Origin: Oscillospiraceae bacterium
Lineage (GTDB): Bacteria > Bacillota > Clostridia > Oscillospirales > CAG-272
Assembly: GCA_015063745.1 (NCBI GenBank)
Contig: SVTO01000003.1
Coordinates: 3,212-67,211 of the forward strand
Length of the DNA stretch: 64,000 nucleotides
Direction: 5' to 3'
This document shows positions 2,003 through 7,618 of this stretch, piece by piece. The position numbers and the translations under genes were made by a program. Numbering within the stretch: position 1 is the stretch's first letter; each line of letters starts with the position of its first letter. The notes beneath the pieces are model-generated. The model saw nothing but the letters and a program-made list of their open reading frames with translations. It was not told the DNA's origin and did not search any database.

Positions 2003-3073
2003 TTAGATTTCGATCAGTTCCTTGGGACAGTCGGTCAGGTTGATTTTTCCGTTTTCGCTCAGATATACCATGTCTTCGATACGGCAGCCGTATTTACCTT
2101 CAAGGTAGACACCGGGTTCTACAGTTACCAGTTCGCCGGTATGCAGAACCAGATCGGTAGCTCTGGCGTTCAGGTTGGGCGCTTCGTGGATCAGCAGACC
2201 TACGCCGTGACCAAGTCCGTGGCCGAAACATCCTTCGTAACCGGCGGCGTTGATGATGTCACGGGCTACTTTATCCACGTCGCTGTTTACCTTGCCGGCT
2301 TCCACGAATTCGAGGGCGGCCAGCTGGGCTTCGAGAACTGTGTTATATACCTTCTTCATTTCCGCATCTGCTTTACCGATGCAGATGGTACGGGTCATAT
2401 CGGAGTGGTAGCCTTCGATCATGGCACCGTAGTCCATGGTCAGGAAGCCTTTTTCCAGCTTCACGGGACGCGGTACGCCATGAGGACGGGAAGACTGGGT
2501 CCCGGATACGGCGATGGTATCAAAGGAAGGCTTTTCACTACCGTTCTTCTTCATAAAGTATTCCAGTTCGGCTACAACATCGGTTTCGGTCATGTCGTAG
2601 TGGATCATGGACAGCAGGTGATGGAATGCGCCTTCTGCGATTCTCTGGGCTTTGGTAACTGCTTCGATTTCGTCAGGCGTCTTGGCTGCTCTGATTTGGG
2701 AAAACATATTTCCGGTGGGAACAAATTCACAGGTGTTCAGCTGTTCTTTGAGGCTGGTCAGTTCGTAGCAGGTCAGGGCGCGGTCTTCGTAACCGATGGT
2801 TTTGAGGTTGTATTCGTTTACGATTTCGGACAGCTTCGGTTTGCCAGGTTCGCATACGGTACAGCAGGAGAAGGCTTCCAGCTTGGCGGCTTCGAAATAG
2901 CGGAAATCGGCAAACAGCCAGGACTTGTCCAGGGTGATAAGCATATATCCGTCGGGATTGTCGAAGTGGGACATATACAGATAGTTTTCCGGCGCAATTA
3001 CGTATACGGCGTCAAGGCCTTTCTCAGCCATTGCGTCTCTCAGTCTTTTATAACGGATTTCCATGATGTTCAT
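2003..3073 (-). CDS. Xaa-Pro aminopeptidase/dipeptidase (peptidase M24B)
   Basis: 356-aa ORF with M24 signature HGLGHGVGLLIHEAP and a creatinase-like N-domain. ATG 3073 is preceded by a GAGAGGA RBS. Confidence 0.85.
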   Translation of the reverse strand: MNIMEIRYKRLRDAMAEKGLDAVYVIAPENYLYMSHFDNPDGYMLITLDKSWLFADFRYFEAAKLEAFSCCTVCEPGKPKLSEIVNEYNLKTIGYEDRALTCYELTSLKEQLNTCEFVPTGNMFSQIRAAKTPDEIEAVTKAQRIAEGAFHHLLSMIHYDMTETDVVAELEYFMKKNGSEKPSFDTIAVSGTQSSRPHGVPRPVKLEKGFLTMDYGAMIEGYHSDMTRTICIGKADAEMKKVYNTVLEAQLAALEFVEAGKVNSDVDKVARDIINAAGYEGCFGHGLGHGVGLLIHEAPNLNARATDLVLHTGELVTVEPGVYLEGKYGCRIEDMVYLSENGKINLTDCPKELIEI

Positions 3074-3078
3074 TGGTT

Positions 3079-3594
3079 TTATCCTCTCTTTTCTTTCCGT
3101 TTATTATATTTTTTCATATATGGGATTTCGATAAGGCGTTTGGTTTTATTGAACAGATCCGTACGGTCCTTGATGGGGGGGACGATCACGGTGTACAGTC
3201 CTGCCTGTTTGCCGCAGGCGGCGTCAGTCAGAAGCTGGTCTCCCAGAAATACAGTTTCCTCCGGTGAGGCGGTCAGTTCGGCAAGGACTTTTTTTAATAC
3301 CTTTATGCCCGGTTTGCCGGCATCGGCGTATGCGGTATAGCCCAGCTTTTCGTTGAACTTTTCAATACGCGGCGGGTGGTTATTGGACAGGAAGGCAATT
3401 TTTATACCCGCTGCTTCCAAGGATTTGAGCCATGTCAGTACGGCTTCGGTGGGTTCCGGATCGCCGTAGGTTACGAGGGTGTTGTCTATATCCGAAACGA
3501 TATATTTTTTGCCTGCCTGCTGCATGTATTCGGGGGTCAGATCCGAAAACTTTTCCAGTACCAGATCGGGGATCAGGTAGGTTTCAAAAAGCAT
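3079..3594 (-). CDS. yqeG: YqeG-family HAD phosphatase (subfamily IIIA)
   Basis: 171-aa ORF with HAD motif I VSDIDNTL, LSNN, and motif GDQLLTD. Size matches YqeG-type proteins. AGAGGAG RBS. Confidence 0.7.
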   Translation of the reverse strand: MLFETYLIPDLVLEKFSDLTPEYMQQAGKKYIVSDIDNTLVTYGDPEPTEAVLTWLKSLEAAGIKIAFLSNNHPPRIEKFNEKLGYTAYADAGKPGIKVLKKVLAELTASPEETVFLGDQLLTDAACGKQAGLYTVIVPPIKDRTDLFNKTKRLIEIPYMKKYNKRKEKRG

Positions 3595-3693
3595 GTTATT
3601 CTCCTCTTGTGGGTTGCTTGGATAACCATACCAATATCATACCATATTTTAATCAAAAAAGAAAGTGTATTTCGGAATTTCCTGCAGAAATAT

Positions 3694-3737
3694 AAAAATA
3701 CAGACCCATGCCGGGCACAGGTCTGTATATATTTTTT
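3694..3737 (-). terminator. rho-independent terminator downstream of the Cys-rich gene
   Basis: Stem ATACAGACC (3698-3706) / GGTCTGTAT (3720-3728) with flanking A- and T-runs. Confidence 0.6.
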
Positions 3738-4302
3738 ATTCGGCTTTATCTTCTTCGCAGCAGCATTCTTCTGTGTTTTCTTCACAGCAGCATTCTTCTG
3801 CTTTTTCTTCGCAGCAGCAGCACTCTTCTGAGTTCTCTTCACAGCAACATTCCTCTGCCTTTTCTTCACAGCAGCAGCACTCTTCTGTGCTTTCTTCACA
3901 GCAACATTCCTCTGCCTTTTCTTCGCAGCAGCATTCTTCCTTTGCAGGTGTTTTAGTTCCGCAGATAGGACAGAAGTTGCAGGTATTGCTGATTTCGTTG
4001 CCGCAGCTTTCGCATACGATAACCTTTTTCAGAGATGCGATCTTCTTCTTCAGAGAAGCAACCTTTGCCTTGCTCTTGTCGATCTGCATGATGTATTCGG
4101 CAATTACTTCAGCGTTGTCGGTGCCGTCCCGTTCTGCTTCGTAAAACAGACGTCCGATTTCCTTGTAGAGTTCGGTCATCTTGTTTTCTTCGCTCTTAAC
4201 TGCCATGGTTGCCTTGGCAATGGCGGTCAGTTCGTTGGTTTTCTTTTTGGTTGCGTCAGCCGCTGTTTTAGCGTTCTTTTTCAGATCATCAAAAAATGCC
4301 AT
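3736..4302 (-). CDS. zinc-ribbon protein with C-terminal EECCC(C)EE tandem-repeat tail (function unknown)
   Basis: 188-aa ORF. Lys-rich helical N-half, then a CESCGNEISNTCNFCPICG zinc-ribbon-like motif, then 7 acidic Cys-triplet/quadruplet repeats. It is co-oriented 35 nt downstream of the esterase gene and followed by a terminator. Confidence 0.7.
   Translation of the reverse strand: MAFFDDLKKNAKTAADATKKKTNELTAIAKATMAVKSEENKMTELYKEIGRLFYEAERDGTDNAEVIAEYIMQIDKSKAKVASLKKKIASLKKVIVCESCGNEISNTCNFCPICGTKTPAKEECCCEEKAEECCCEESTEECCCCEEKAEECCCEENSEECCCCEEKAEECCCEENTEECCCEEDKAE
3751..3939 (-). repeat. in-frame coding tandem repeat (27-30 nt units, 57-nt higher-order period)
   Basis: Encodes EECCCEE-KA-EECCCEE-ST-EECCCCEE-KA-EECCCEE-NS-EECCCCEE-KA-EECCCEE-NT-EECCCEE. 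An exact 30-mer TTCACAGCAACATTCCTCTGCCTTTTCTTC occurs at 3838-3867 and 3895-3924. Confidence 0.9.
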
Positions 4303-4336
4303 GTTATCAAATCCCTTCTGTATTTTGTATTTGGAA

Positions 4337-5008
4337 TCAGCCGCGCTTCTGTGCTGCGAGCCATTCGATCATATCGGTCTGTTCATAGGCCGGTACCCAG
4401 CTTGCGTGACCTACCTTATCGTATGCGGTAAGGGTTACGCGTGCGCCATGCTTTCTGGCACAGGCTACCATTTCGGCGGAGTTATTGAAGGGTACGAGGT
4501 CGTCGTCCAGGCCATGAAAGGCACGGATCTTCATACCGGTCAGCGCATCGGTTCTCCAGGACAGGCCGCCGCCGCATACGGGTGCGCCGCAGGAGAATTC
4601 CTTGGGGTAGGTTGTGAGCATATCCCATGTACCGAAACCGCCCATGGACAGGCCGGTGATGGATACGCGGTCTTCATCGCCGTTGAGCATGGCTACCACT
4701 TCACGGATCCACTTCATCAGGGGATGTACCAGGTGGTTCCATACCATGTTTACGGGGCACTGAGGGGATACGGTGATTACACGCAGTCCCTTATAGTCGG
4801 GATCGGCGGAGAAAAGCTTCGGAACACCGTTTACCTTTACGATTTCAATCTGTTCGGGGCTTCCGTCACCGCGTTCGCCTGCACCGTGGAGGAATACGAT
4901 TACGGGCAGCTTTTCCTTTGCGGGGTCAAAGCCGGTGGGGGTTGTAATGATGCCGGCGAGTCTGCCGCATACTTCTGCTTCGGACTGATAATAGAATACT
5001 CTTTCCAT
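4337..5008 (-). CDS. alpha/beta-hydrolase esterase (carboxylesterase / PHB-depolymerase-like)
   Basis: 223-aa ORF with PVIVFLHGAGERG, nucleophile elbow GLSMGG, and a C-terminal His context GHASW. Confidence 0.65.
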   Translation of the reverse strand: MERVFYYQSEAEVCGRLAGIITTPTGFDPAKEKLPVIVFLHGAGERGDGSPEQIEIVKVNGVPKLFSADPDYKGLRVITVSPQCPVNMVWNHLVHPLMKWIREVVAMLNGDEDRVSITGLSMGGFGTWDMLTTYPKEFSCGAPVCGGGLSWRTDALTGMKIRAFHGLDDDLVPFNNSAEMVACARKHGARVTLTAYDKVGHASWVPAYEQTDMIEWLAAQKRG

Positions 5009-5220
5009 TTTTTCTTCTCCCTTATGTCATATGTCATATATCCAATGCCTGTCTTGGCCGGAATTTTGCTTTTTTATTATTATACAATATTTTTCCCCGC
5101 CTGTCAAATCGTATTTCCCTGTCTTTATGAATATTTTGCCGATATACTATAAATATTTTTGCGGGTTTCTGTAAATACTTTCTTTGGGGATATTTCGGAT
5201 AATTTTCGCGGAGGTTTTGA

Positions 5221-5661
5221 ATGAATACAGATCTGAAAACATATAAACGGTATGCGCAGGGGCGGGCTAAAAAGTCCCCGGTTATCAGAGACTGCATATG
5301 GGCTTTCTGTTCGGGAGGCGGAATCTGCGTTTTCGCGCAATGGATAAAGAACGGGCTGCTATCCGGCGGTACGGAGGAAAAAACTGCCGGGATGCTCGTT
5401 TCGGTGATTCTGATCGGTATTGCGTCGATTCTTACGGCTTTCGGGGTATTTGACAAGATCGCCAAGCACACCGGTGCGGGGACTCTTGTGCCGATTACGG
5501 GGTTCTCCAACGGGATCTCTTCCAGTGCGATTGATGCACGTTCGGAGGGTTTTGTGCTCGGGGTTGGGGCTAAGATGTTCCAGATTGCGGGGCCTGTGAT
5601 CCTGTATGGGTTATCGACAGGGGTGATTTATGGAATGATTTACTGGATAATTGGCTTATGA
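5221..5661 (+). CDS. spoVAC: stage V sporulation protein AC
   Basis: 146-aa ORF, collinear with the remembered B. subtilis SpoVAC sequence (GAGTLVPITGFSNGISSSAIDARSEGFVLGVGAKMF). Four hydrophobic segments. Confidence 0.88.
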   Translation: MNTDLKTYKRYAQGRAKKSPVIRDCIWAFCSGGGICVFAQWIKNGLLSGGTEEKTAGMLVSVILIGIASILTAFGVFDKIAKHTGAGTLVPITGFSNGISSSAIDARSEGFVLGVGAKMFQIAGPVILYGLSTGVIYGMIYWIIGL

Positions 5662-5666
5662 TAAAG

Positions 5667-5697
5667 AAAAGTGACGACTGATGCCGTCACTTTTTTT
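5667..5697. terminator. bidirectional rho-independent terminator
   Basis: Stem GTGACG (5671-5676) / CGTCAC (5685-5690). A-run upstream and T7 downstream. Lies between convergent spoVAC and the deacetylase gene. Confidence 0.65.
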
Positions 5698-5698
5698 G

Positions 5699-6391
5699 TT
5701 ATAGCAGAACTTCTTTATTGGTTCCGTAAAAGATATCACTTTTGTTGCTGATCAGTTTGAAGAAATCCTCCAGACGGTTCCAGTAATCCGGCGCATAGTC
5801 CATTTCGTAGGAATGTCCCCAGATATAAAAGATTTGCGGCGTTTTAGCTTCAAGGGCGACAAATTTTTGTCCCAGTTCCATCAGCGTATCAAAGTTCAGA
5901 TGATACACGCTGGGGTTGAAGCGGTACAGATTGTTCTGGGGATCGAAATTGCTGGTACAGGTGATCGTTCGGCAGTACTTTACGCCTGTGTTTTCTTTGA
6001 TGATTTTCGCGGTTCGGTCGTCATTGTTCACGCCACCACAGGGATAAGCCATTCCGATGACTTCATAGCCCACCATTTCGGACAGATTCAGGCGGTCTTT
6101 TTCGACCTGCCGGATAATTTCTTCGTCCGTTAAACCTGTCAGGTTCGGGTGGGTAAGGGTGTGTACTGCTACTTCATGACCTTCGTACACGCTTTTTACG
6201 TCTTCCGGCTCCAGCTTGAAGTGGGTGATTTTCTTTTCTCCGTAGTCAAATATATCTTTTTTTCCGAGCAATTCGGAATTGATATTGAAGGTACATTTTA
6301 ATCCGTATTTATTCAGCAGCTCGATCAGTCTGATATCCTGGGTAACGCCGTCATCATAGCTGAATGTGACGGTTTTCATCTTTTTATTCAT
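5699..6391 (-). CDS. polysaccharide deacetylase (CE4/NodB homology domain)
   Basis: 230-aa ORF with CE4 motifs FSYDDG and HTLTHP. Confidence 0.75.
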   Translation of the reverse strand: MNKKMKTVTFSYDDGVTQDIRLIELLNKYGLKCTFNINSELLGKKDIFDYGEKKITHFKLEPEDVKSVYEGHEVAVHTLTHPNLTGLTDEEIIRQVEKDRLNLSEMVGYEVIGMAYPCGGVNNDDRTAKIIKENTGVKYCRTITCTSNFDPQNNLYRFNPSVYHLNFDTLMELGQKFVALEAKTPQIFYIWGHSYEMDYAPDYWNRLEDFFKLISNKSDIFYGTNKEVLL

Positions 6392-6415
6392 GTCTATACC
6401 TTCTTTCTGCTCTTA

Positions 6416-7618
6416 TCATTTATTGGAGTAAAGCTTAGCAAGTCCGCCTTCGGAGGTTTCTCTGTAGAGGTGGGACAGATCCTTCCCTGTCTGGTACATG
6501 GTTTCCACCACCACATCAAAAGAAATTTTCCGGCTGGCATACAGGAAATTTGCAAGGCTGAGTGCGTTGATGGCACGCATGGCAGCTACGGCATTCCGTT
6601 CAATGCAGGGAATCTGCACCAAGCCGCATACGGGGTCGCAGGTGAGCCCGAGATGGTGCTCCATGGCCACTTCCGCTGCGTATTCGATCTGATCAATGCC
6701 CATTTCAAAAAGCTCACACAGGGCAGCTGATGCCATTGTACAGGCTGTTCCGATTTCCGCCTGGCATCCGCATTCCGCTCCGCTGATGGAGGCGTTTGTG
6801 CTGACGATATTTCCGATCAGGCCTGCAACAGCCAGGGCGCGGATGATGTCATCATCGGTGAAATGTTTTTTCTCCTGCATATATTTCAGCACCGCGGGAA
6901 CGACTCCGCAGGCGCCGCAGGTCGGAGCGGTTACTATGATACCGCAATCGGCGTTCTGTTCGCTTACAGCGAAGGCATAAGCACATACGAGGCGGTTTTC
7001 TTTGGTTTGGGGGCTTTCGTCGATGTGTTTCTGATTATACAGGAACTGTGCTTTTCTCTCCACTTCCAGGCCGCCAGGCAGTTTTCCTGTTTTACTCAAG
7101 CCTTCGAATATGGCGTTCTGCATGGTTTTCCATACGTTCATAAGGAAAGGCTTGATGTCGGACTGTTCATGGGCAAATACGTAGTCTGACAGGCGGATAT
7201 TATGGCTTTTACAGTATGCGGCGATATCGCTGAATGTCCGATGAGGGTAGATTTCCGGTGGAGCGAGTACTTTATCGCCGTCACCGCGGATTTCACCTCC
7301 GCCTATGCTATAGTAACGTTTTCGACCAATTTCGGATTCGTTGGTAAAGGCAATAAAATCCACGGTATTGGGATGACGGAAATCCGTTGATTCTTTGGAG
7401 AAGCAGATATGGGTTTCCACGTCCTTGAGGGTTTCCGAGATAGCTCTGTCCGTACCGTGGCCTTTTCCGGTTTTGGACAATGAGCCGTACAGAACGGCTT
7501 CAATTTTATCGGCCGTTGGGTACAGTTCGCGGAAATGTGCTGCTGCGTAGGCGGGGCCCATGGTATGGGAGCTGGAGGGGCCGCAGCCGATTTTGTATAT
7601 ATTTTTGATGGATTTCAT
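6416..7618 (-). CDS. sdaA: L-serine ammonia-lyase (Fe-S dependent, single-chain beta+alpha)
   Basis: 400-aa ORF. N-terminus KIGCGPSSSHTMGP matches L-serine dehydratases. Cys contexts PTCGACG and ECGCQAE are present. Confidence 0.85.
   Translation of the reverse strand: MKSIKNIYKIGCGPSSSHTMGPAYAAAHFRELYPTADKIEAVLYGSLSKTGKGHGTDRAISETLKDVETHICFSKESTDFRHPNTVDFIAFTNESEIGRKRYYSIGGGEIRGDGDKVLAPPEIYPHRTFSDIAAYCKSHNIRLSDYVFAHEQSDIKPFLMNVWKTMQNAIFEGLSKTGKLPGGLEVERKAQFLYNQKHIDESPQTKENRLVCAYAFAVSEQNADCGIIVTAPTCGACGVVPAVLKYMQEKKHFTDDDIIRALAVAGLIGNIVSTNASISGAECGCQAEIGTACTMASAALCELFEMGIDQIEYAAEVAMEHHLGLTCDPVCGLVQIPCIERNAVAAMRAINALSLANFLYASRKISFDVVVETMYQTGKDLSHLYRETSEGGLAKLYSNK

Follow-up and report, generated by a model that had tools for sequence, protein, structure and literature searches.

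A 64,000-nt stretch of contig SVTO01000003.1 from an Oscillospiraceae bacterium (assembly GCA_015063745.1), hereafter called the window, encodes a 21 kDa protein in which a basic helical hairpin and a four-cysteine zinc ribbon are followed by a tail of Cys triplets and quadruplets set between Glu pairs. Judged by its conservation, the Cys-tail gene is a real, translated gene with purifying selection acting on the Cys residues of the tail. By analogy with known systems, the product is predicted to be a metallothionein- or phytochelatin-like thiolate buffer in a previously undescribed bacterial form. The preferred reading, which is tentative and still short of probable, is that of a cytosolic scaffold displaying a polyanionic poly-thiolate tail, which would buffer soft metals and metalloids or thiol stress.

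Architecture of the Cys/Glu tail

A first-pass annotation, made from the sequence alone, had described a three-part open reading frame (ORF) of 188 residues at 3736..4302 on the reverse strand (Table 1). Translation reproduces the described sequence. The AlphaFold2 model, calculated on an alignment of 70 family sequences, gives the same anatomy: a helical hairpin and a zinc ribbon, both predicted with confidence (predicted local distance difference test, pLDDT, above 90), and a disordered tail. The scaffold of hairpin and ribbon accounts for 120 of the 188 residues. Residues 120–188 have pLDDT values below 50 and are predicted to be disordered.

The seven EEC(3–4)EE units at residues 122–184 comprise five EECCCEE and two EECCCCEE units, which are joined in order by the dipeptides KA, ST, KA, NS, KA and NT. 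The 63-residue array contains 23 Cys and 28 Glu, so that the repeat number, residue counts and linkers given in the first-pass annotation match the translation. The whole tail has 29 Glu against 23 Cys, and the protein ends in ...DKAE. In the corresponding DNA (3751..3939), Tandem Repeats Finder detects a period of 27 (6.8 copies) and a period of 57 (3.1 copies, 90% matches). By this pattern, a higher-order unit of two repeats was amplified recently.

With 23 Cys in 68 residues the tail has a composition of the metallothionein type. The chance of finding at least 23 Cys in 68 residues at a background of 1.5% is about 5e-25. This value, together with the recurrence of such tails in more than 100 homologues, excludes a chance origin. 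As the first-pass annotation had supposed, the tail lies outside any characterised family: searches of Pfam, NCBIfam, PDB sequences, Rfam and, with Foldseek, PDB structures returned no family covering the protein or the tail. A protein search with the tail alone yielded 946 word-sharing candidates, none of which was left after the composition correction of HMMER, and is uninformative. In the literature, tail strings were found only as secondary-structure strings, and the searches returned no description of a family with hairpin, ribbon and Cys/Glu tail.

Conservation of the family and selection on the tail

A search of 5.8 billion proteins returned 149 homologues. Nearly all have a helical N-terminal domain, a CxxC...CxxC pair and a Cys/Glu-rich tail of variable length and pattern. 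The top homologue (P0001) is 100% identical and is a hypothetical protein from a Ruminococcaceae/Oscillospiraceae metagenome-assembled genome (MAG). A scan of one genome per species, based on 23 closer sequences, located 39 loci. All of these are in uncultured MAGs labelled Oscillospiraceae, Ruminococcus, Clostridia or Eubacteriales, and the sources are ruminants (rumen, caecum and rectum), chicken and the human gut.

The reading frame is open through the tail in all 39 loci; a few loci at contig ends are truncated at the 5' end. In the DNA alignment of the window with the related loci L052 and L010, the tails differ in length by 69, 45, 9 and 3 nt, all multiples of three, and the conserved C-terminus (...KAE or ...TAE), the stop codon and the terminator hairpin follow 3' of these indels. 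Frame-breaking indels or stop codons in the repeat region, which had been named beforehand as a sign that the region is not translated, are absent among the relatives. Between the window and L052, 7 of 13 aligned Cys codons differ synonymously (TGC/TGT), and at 2 Cys positions another residue is present. The Cys-codon patterns of twelve other pairs are similar. Taken together, the intact frames, the multiple-of-three indels, the synonymous changes of Cys codons and a conserved promoter (see below) argue for a real gene.

Long ORFs cross the repeat in other frames as well (3665..4144 and 3708..3956 on the forward strand and 3573..3899 on the reverse strand) and encode, for example, SSQQHSS repeats. 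The conservation pattern gives them no support and marks them as by-products of low-complexity DNA.

At least 8 Cys are present in 103 of 117 family tails (median 15 Cys, maximum 25). The composition of these 103 tails is 30% Glu, 21% Cys and 12% Ala, with 0.6% His and 0.4% aromatic residues. The motif C.C occurs 775 times in the family tails (CEC 177 and CTC 93 times), ECCCE 76 times and CCCC 71 times. Most residues next to Cys runs are Glu or Asp, and triplets and quadruplets are favoured over doublets. The distribution of run lengths in the tails of P0001–P0120 is non-monotonic, with 687 single Cys, 63 doublets, 174 triplets, 68 quadruplets, no run of five and one run of six. The ECCCE unit recurs in members of 30–40% identity from different genomic contexts (P0089, P0090, P0095, P0104 and P0111), and literal (Cys-Glu)n stretches, for example CECECECE, occur in some members. 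In a tree of the N-terminal domain, Cys-rich tails are spread throughout, and several nested clades have acidic tails with 0–3 Cys.

Helical hairpin and zinc ribbon

In the AlphaFold2 model, a long helix (residues 2–59) and a second helix (residues 64–92) are connected by the tip AERDGTD. The pLDDT values are 93–98 across residues 21–110. Helix 1 has twice the length of helix 2 and, as read from the consensus, carries hydrophobic residues at 3–4 heptad spacing over residues 3–53. Because the N-terminal half of helix 1 lacks an intramolecular partner, the hairpin is predicted to self-associate and is likely to be oligomeric. The scaffold (residues 1–120) has a computed isoelectric point (pI) of 8.8. 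No signal peptide or transmembrane segment is evident in the sequence of the window protein.

The ribbon is modelled as two β-hairpins at residues 94–118, with strands 94–96 and 103–105 (pLDDT above 90), and its motif CESCGNEISNTCNFCPICG spans residues 97–115. The pattern C97-x2-C100-x10-C111-x2-C114-G115 is invariant in the 70 sequences, as is Gly50. Lys30 and Tyr54 are nearly invariant, and EIGRLFYxAER is invariant in the closer relatives. For the window protein itself, Pfam and NCBIfam returned only coiled-coil noise, and no ribbon model of Pfam matched at E ≤ 1. The homologues P0032, P0107 and P0109 match Zn_Ribbon_1 (PF13240) with 31–33 bits against a cutoff of 25. Membership of the window protein in the zinc-ribbon fold class thus follows from homology. 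Against PDB sequences, the family profile gave ribbon-level matches or coiled-coil noise (rubrerythrin C-terminal domain, E = 1.4e-3; Rad50 hook, E = 4e-3). Foldseek against the PDB returned generic helical hairpins only, all with E > 0.4.

Two assignments were considered for the hairpin and rejected. The combination of a hairpin, four Cys and the acidic tip AERDGxD recalls DksA/TraR- or Gre-like factors of the secondary channel. No model or fold match was obtained, and the Cys spacing differs (17 in DksA, 10 in the ribbon of the window protein). For zf-dskA_traR there is no Pfam match at E ≤ 1 with the window protein, and the homologues give only marginal TraR matches (E 0.02–0.09). A PspA/IM30/ESCRT-III-like protein was considered for the N-terminus MxFF..K; there is no Pfam match, and the CHMP4B hairpin is reached only at E ~0.9 with a probability of 0.5.

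CPxCG knuckles are common to rubredoxin-type sites, so zinc and iron are indistinguishable by sequence. An iron function, in which the tail and a rubredoxin-like ribbon would assemble or store iron-sulfur clusters or ferrous iron under anaerobic conditions, is nevertheless improbable. Cys and Glu ligands would suit Fe(II), the knuckles and the weak match of the profile to the rubrerythrin C-terminal domain are in line with it, and Cys-rich C-terminal FeoB peptides (CCAASTTGDCH) have been studied for binding of Fe(II), Mn(II) and Zn(II) (PMC10647171). The CxxCxxC...CP spacing typical of clusters is absent, however, and suf, isc and nif genes are not linked. On general chemical grounds consecutive Cys are geometrically poor cluster ligands, and the tail is predicted to be disordered.

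A superfamily of hairpin and zinc-ribbon proteins

Searched with a profile, 1.84 billion representatives yielded 29,300 matches at E ≤ 1e-3, 7,029 at E ≤ 1e-10 and 483 at E ≤ 1e-30; the weakest matches may reflect the zinc ribbon alone. By homology, the window protein belongs to a large unnamed superfamily of hairpin-plus-zinc-ribbon proteins. Most of the best matches (P0121–P0269) share the hairpin and the first ribbon, to which 2–19 further Cys4 ribbons on Pro/Ala/Glu linkers are added. Hairpin and first ribbon are homologous in both groups, whereas the sister proteins add ribbons and the Cys-tail subfamily has a ribbon-free Cys/Glu tail. With 2–19 further Cys4 ribbons standing where the Cys-tail subfamily has its tail, variation in the number of thiolate metal sites beyond the C-terminal end of the hairpin is a recurring trait of the superfamily. 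Cys-rich acidic tails resembling that of the window protein are found in P0136, P0149, P0183, P0229 and P0233.

The top representatives examined are small or medium-sized proteins without an enzymatic domain, the sole other domain being that of one FHA fusion. Matches of the Pfam models Zn_Ribbon_1, DZR, DUF7575 and DUF7577 cover the ribbons only. No functional name was found among the members examined, which are called 'hypothetical protein' apart from one automatic annotation based on the ribbon.

The Cys/Glu segment on other scaffolds

A scan of metagenome contigs for DNA encoding EECCCEE gave at least 120 loci; the following holds among the matches listed. The scan found chance occurrences in folded proteins as well as Cys/Glu acidic segments on unrelated scaffolds. 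Multi-unit tails are attached to SHOCT-like or apolipoprotein-like helical proteins (L053, L080, L167 and L159) and to proteins with a single N-terminal transmembrane helix (L101, L105, L113, L137 and L068). Single units occur on a DUF6110 protein (L102), a STAS protein (L123), a DUF1292 protein (L153, a weak Pfam match), the N-terminus of GrpE (L165 and L056), a TusA-DsrE protein (L070), a cytoplasmic loop of MntP (L066) and a ribbon-less member of the hairpin family (L112). The labels SHOCT-like, DUF6110, STAS, DUF1292, GrpE, TusA-DsrE and MntP derive from Pfam; the transmembrane anchors were recognised by eye. L074 is also among the carriers, and a cyclophilin-like fragment was recognised by eye.

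On these sequence comparisons the Cys/Glu tail is a portable module. The occurrence on unrelated scaffolds indicates that selection apparently acts on the segment's chemistry and not on a particular pairing with the hairpin, and it argues for a self-contained chemical role over that of a motif for a particular partner.

Comparison with known metal-binding systems

By analogy, the protein resembles metallothioneins functionally, and it belongs to no metallothionein family. SmtA/BmtA are bacterial metallothioneins; no metallothionein model of Pfam or NCBIfam, which would point to homology with SmtA/BmtA or MymT, matches at E ≤ 1. The likeness lies in the very high Cys content, the motifs CxC, CC, CCC and CxxC, the near absence of His and aromatic residues, the evolution by modular repeats and the predicted disorder of the metal-free form. 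Clusters of the CCC type are a hallmark of the Cd-induced subfamily 7a metallothioneins of Tetrahymena and are infrequent in other metallothioneins (PMC1808422). In contrast to metallothioneins, the window protein has no sequence homology to them, a Glu-rich anionic tail in place of a Lys/Ser/Gly-rich one and a folded scaffold of 120 residues. It is therefore not a low-molecular-weight protein consisting essentially of a Cys domain. Furthermore, the Cys-tail gene bears no sign of metal-responsive regulation, and metal binding is putative here.

With phytochelatins the tail shares a composition of nearly two letters, Glu and Cys, in a ratio of ~1.3:1, and some relatives have (CE)n runs. Natural phytochelatins are made enzymatically, are γ-linked and have n = 2–11, whereas the tail is made ribosomally, in frame and within a larger protein. 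Identity with phytochelatins was rejected accordingly, as the tail is gene-encoded and not a γ-glutamyl product of phytochelatin synthase. Unlike in (Glu-Cys)n peptides, the Cys residues of the window tail do not alternate with Glu; they are clustered in triplets and quadruplets between Glu pairs. Synthetic phytochelatins of the form (Glu-Cys)n-Gly have been engineered as EC8, EC11 and EC20. Besides these constructs we know of no ribosomally encoded (Glu-Cys)n counterpart, and literature searches found none. Host cells are reported to gain Cd binding from α-linked (Glu-Cys)n peptides, which can be made ribosomally (PMC4292183).

A folded domain with a low-complexity, disordered tail of metal ligands and vicinal Cys is also found in metallochaperones and at the C-terminus of FeoB. 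SlyD of E. coli, HypB, UreE and the GroES of H. pylori are metallochaperones with such tails. These tails are short, dominated by His and serve identified partners, whereas the window tail lacks His, is much richer in Cys and is linked to no client. Csp1 and Csp3 are cytosolic, thiolate-rich, high-capacity sinks for Cu(I), which like the bacterial metallothionein MymT are not always under a dedicated sensor (PMC11672702). They are folded four-helix bundles with Cys residues lining the core and are not homologous to the window protein, whose Cys residues are in a disordered tail.

Proposed function and points against it

In the proposed mechanism, residues 1–118 would form a conserved basic domain, namely a long heptad-patterned hairpin with a Cys4 zinc (or iron) ribbon as its cap. 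This scaffold, likely oligomeric, would display the disordered tail of Glu-flanked Cys triplets and quadruplets as a high-capacity array of thiolate and carboxylate ligands and as a ribosomally made counterpart to metallothionein or (Glu-Cys)n phytochelatin. The array may sequester soft ions such as Cu(I), Zn(II) and Cd(II), or species of the As(III)/Te(IV) type. The same thiols may also take up thiol-reactive stress within the cytoplasm of gut Clostridia, which is reducing in these strict anaerobes. The 23 thiolates would give the array a capacity similar to that of a 20-Cys mammalian metallothionein. Metal binding, the identity of the metal, the stoichiometry, oligomerisation and the physiological role are what we infer from sequence, model and analogy.

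Metallothionein-like metal binding appears to be the most economical reading. It is suggested by the family-wide CxC, CC, CCC and CCCC patterns, by the near absence of His and aromatic residues and by the Cys4-ribbon arrays of the sister proteins. Disorder of the tail beside a confidently predicted scaffold is expected of an apo-metallothionein. The motif repertoire of metallothioneins and the phytochelatin-like Glu/Cys chemistry together lead to the model of a ligand array. Cytosolic thiolate sinks without a constant dedicated sensor are known (MymT and Csp).

Several observations weigh against the thiolate-buffer reading. Metal sensors, efflux pumps or metal chaperones linked to the gene were found in none of the contexts examined, and the promoter looks constitutive, not metal-inducible. 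Among known metallothioneins, which prefer Lys, Ser or Gly, Glu-rich flanks are atypical, and the 120-residue scaffold makes the protein larger than the classical ones. Finally, relatives that are adjacent to the SpoVAC-like gene and have the same promoter carry acidic tails with 0–3 Cys (L021–L024, L026–L028, L030, L033, L040 and L046). As Cys-free acidic tails exist in syntenic relatives, the core function of the family cannot depend on Cys.

The tail could alternatively serve as a protein thiol redox buffer or oxidant scavenger. In such a protein, the Cys clusters would be oxidised reversibly (CxC/CCC disulfides or persulfides) and re-reduced by thioredoxin, which would protect a strict anaerobe from O2, reactive oxygen species and electrophiles. 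A very high thiol density in a disordered, soluble and acidic context is consistent with this, as are the strong, constitutive-looking promoter, the presence of the module on many scaffolds including a protein of the TusA-DsrE sulfur-carrier type, the link of a distant subgroup to the stress genes telA and xpaC (see below) and the weak resemblance of the ribbon profile to the rubredoxin-like C-terminal domain of rubrerythrin (E = 0.0014). However, thioredoxin, peroxiredoxin and reductase genes are not linked in the contexts examined, Cys-free relatives exist, and general chemistry leads one to expect that the flanking carboxylates raise the thiol pKa and lower the reactivity. Such a buffer is rather unlikely; it would not exclude metal binding.

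A broader proposal extends the thiolate-buffer reading to all carriers of the module. The organisms that carry Cys/Glu modules are not known to have a glutathione or bacillithiol system. Glu/Cys modules might be a protein substitute for low-molecular-weight thiols and phytochelatins in gut and rumen Clostridia, with the hairpin/ribbon family as their main, highly expressed carrier and with membrane anchors, SHOCT-like proteins, GrpE, STAS and other scaffolds as further ones. Soft metals and the thiol redox state would then be buffered in the cytosol chiefly by these tails. This proposal is speculative and quite unlikely.

Genomic context, promoter and expression

The features of the locus are listed in Table 1. 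The purine core of the ribosome-binding site is kept in L052 (identical GAAGGGA), and one base is different in L010 (GAAAGGA). The terminator ascribed to the gene in the first-pass annotation was found, and its stem is conserved in L052 and L010, where base changes preserve complementarity in the DNA alignment. The spacing to the upstream esterase ORF is 34 nt and not, as had been given, 35 nt.

Table 1. Features of the Cys-tail gene and its neighbourhood in the window.
Feature	Position	Strand	Basis and remarks
Coding sequence of the 188-residue protein with hairpin, zinc ribbon and Cys/Glu tail	3736..4302	-	ATG start; stop codon 3736..3738
Residues 2–92, Lys-rich antiparallel helical hairpin, conserved family core (predicted)	4027..4299	-	AlphaFold2, family conservation
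Residues 94–118, C4 zinc ribbon with rubredoxin-like knuckles, CxxC-x10-CPxCG (predicted)	3949..4023	-	Conservation, model, Pfam via homologues
Residues 122–184, seven EEC(3–4)EE units with dipeptide linkers	3751..3939	-	Translation, Tandem Repeats Finder
Whole tail, residues 119–188	3739..3948	-	Net charge ~ -25
Ribosome-binding site GAAGGGA, 9 nt before ATG	4312..4318	-	Read from sequence
Intrinsic terminator with 14-bp stem, 3-nt loop and T-rich tail	3688..3728	-	Stem 3728..3698, then TTTTATATTT
α/β-Hydrolase (esterase) gene	4337..5008	-	Pfam Peptidase_S9 and Abhydrolase_2
Sigma-A-type promoter TTGACA-17-TATAAT	5079..5107	-	12/12 consensus matches; upstream of the esterase gene
SpoVAC-like gene, divergent neighbour	5221..5661	+	Pfam SpoVAC_SpoVAEB, 7e-36

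An intergenic, near-consensus promoter of the sigma-A type, TTTAATTTGACttt-N-GTGTATAATA, is conserved for the Cys-tail gene in all syntenic homologous loci examined. The window promoter (5107..5079) is the counterpart of this conserved promoter. The esterase gene lies between promoter and Cys-tail gene only in the window, L010 and L052 and is absent from ~30 other syntenic loci, where the promoter immediately precedes the Cys-tail gene. Its confinement to the window and the two closest relatives indicates that it was inserted into the leader of a gene that had ancestrally been monocistronic and under a strong promoter. Judged by this comparison, the Cys-tail gene shares the promoter of the esterase gene, which was ancestrally its own, a relation missed in the first-pass annotation. 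The two genes are now probably co-transcribed, and the Cys-tail protein is probably abundant.

A conserved A/T-rich block (TGTTTACA-type; AAATGTTTACATTTTAA) is located ~20 nt upstream of the -35 element in L024, L025, L031, L042, L009 and others. The block may serve as UP element, second promoter or operator. By-eye inspection of the promoter for a metal-sensor operator found that the block matches no operator recognised. Rfam gave no riboswitch or other RNA element at the gathering threshold in the window or in seven related loci.

In 33 loci the Cys-tail gene has a SpoVAC-like gene as its divergent neighbour, mostly ~200 bp upstream, and the downstream genes vary; a YqeG phosphatase and an M24 peptidase follow in ~10 loci and other genes elsewhere. 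The pairing with the SpoVAC-like gene could be functional or merely ancestral synteny. The SpoVAC-like gene of the window stands alone, with 146.9 bits against TIGR02838 (cutoff 164) and no spoVAD or spoVAE genes after it. In two loci the spacer to the Cys-tail gene is ~1 kb long. That of L029 (~5100–5900) contains direct repeats (GGGGCGCCGCCTGCGTAAGGCATCTTCCCGAAATTTTCGGGAAAC...) and that of L013 (~4000–5000) a small ORF that apparently encodes a membrane protein. The MAG SIG670 carries two blocks of SpoVAC-like gene, Cys-tail gene, YqeG and M24 (L019 and L034), with tails of 14 and 21 Cys, respectively; the double block could be a segmental duplication or a strain mix in the bin.

The neighbourhood raises the question of a spore-associated structural protein, the tail of which would form disulfide cross-links in spore layers, as the first-pass annotation had offered as an alternative, or would bind Ca2+ together with SpoVAC through its acidic residues. 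The conserved divergent SpoVAC-like gene, albeit with variable downstream genes, the proximity of distant members to spoVB-like, yabP, yabQ and divIC genes and the known occurrence of Cys-rich proteins in clostridial spore surface layers are compatible with such a role. The conserved promoter of the Cys-tail gene speaks against it, however, since it is of the near-consensus sigma-A type (TTGAC-17-TATAAT), and the separate -10-like motifs that look sigma-F/G-like by eye (CATACTA and GGGAATACTG) are on the SpoVAC side. In addition, no similarity to CotY/Z, CdeC or CsxA was found in Pfam, NCBIfam or PDB sequences, and the protein is highly soluble and acidic and lacks a self-assembly domain. A spore role is hence hardly probable, and the disulfide cross-linking alternative is disfavoured. 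Identification as a spore coat or exosporium protein of the CotY/Z, CdeC or CsxA type was rejected, as there is no family match and the promoter is sigma-A-like and not of the mother-cell sigma-E/K type.

A precursor of a ribosomally synthesised and post-translationally modified peptide (RiPP) is very improbable and was rejected, as no maturase is linked. In such a precursor the N-terminal domain would act as leader and the Cys/Glu tail as core, modified by a maturase (for example with radical-SAM thioethers, as in SCIFF/ranthipeptides). The Cys-rich C-terminus, the Clostridium-related organism and the existence of known Cys-rich cores would suit a RiPP, but radical-SAM, MNIO/DUF692, lanthipeptide and transporter genes are absent within ~6 kb in the window and the syntenic loci. 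The radical-SAM gene located two genes upstream in RecJ-RelA contexts is a member of a conserved housekeeping array, and a folded, conserved 'leader' of 120 residues is atypical.

Two distant subgroups have other neighbours. In one, the gene follows udk in a RecJ-RelA-...-radical-SAM-udk array, and spoVB-like, mazG, yabP, yabQ and divIC genes come next in two of three loci. In the other, the gene comes directly after xpaC (Halogen_Hydrol) and telA with gaps of 8–30 nt in two different species; the xpaC-telA loci are L007, L008 and L049 (positions ~2400–5600 / 3400–6500). TelA and XpaC are toxic-anion and envelope-stress proteins and have been linked to daptomycin resistance (PMC6811118). The arrangement suggests an xpaC-telA-X operon tied to toxic-anion or envelope stress.

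This link bears on a further explanation, in which the hairpin/zinc-ribbon domain is the essential part and the tail is a generic polyanionic disordered segment. The protein would then be a membrane or envelope-stress helper or a charge-mimic regulator, and the Cys residues would be a lineage-specific embellishment with a secondary role. All family tails examined are acidic, with Cys counts from 0 to 25 even at the same syntenic position, and the N-terminal domain (pI 8.8) is opposed to a tail with a charge of -25, which suggests intramolecular electrostatic regulation. The N-terminus (MAFFDDLKK..., MTIFNNIKR...) resembles an amphipathic helix, and among the matches listed in the EECCCEE scan multi-unit tails sit on transmembrane-anchored or apolipoprotein/YtxH-like helical proteins. 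Purifying selection on Cys and the preference for CCC/CCCC runs, however, are at odds with a secondary role of the Cys residues. Cys-rich tails dominate the tree of the N-terminal domain (103 of 117), and the hairpin has no match to PspA, DksA/TraR or another functional family. A function centred on the hairpin is unlikely on balance.

Implications

To our knowledge, few bacterial proteins of the metallothionein type are known (SmtA/BmtA, MymT and Csp), and we know of none described in gut Clostridia. The analysis defines a large unnamed superfamily, in which a helical hairpin is followed by 1–19 zinc ribbons. Proteins with Cys/Glu tails occur in dozens of species-level genomes from the rumen, livestock and the human gut, habitats with dietary Cu and Zn and high sulfide. 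If the tails bind metals, they would constitute a new, widespread class of cytosolic metal or thiol buffer and would parallel in nature the (Glu-Cys)n 'synthetic phytochelatins' that are engineered for use in bioremediation. The portability of the EECCCEE-type segment makes the buffering of thiophilic metals and thiol stress in strict anaerobes approachable by experiment through a single small protein.

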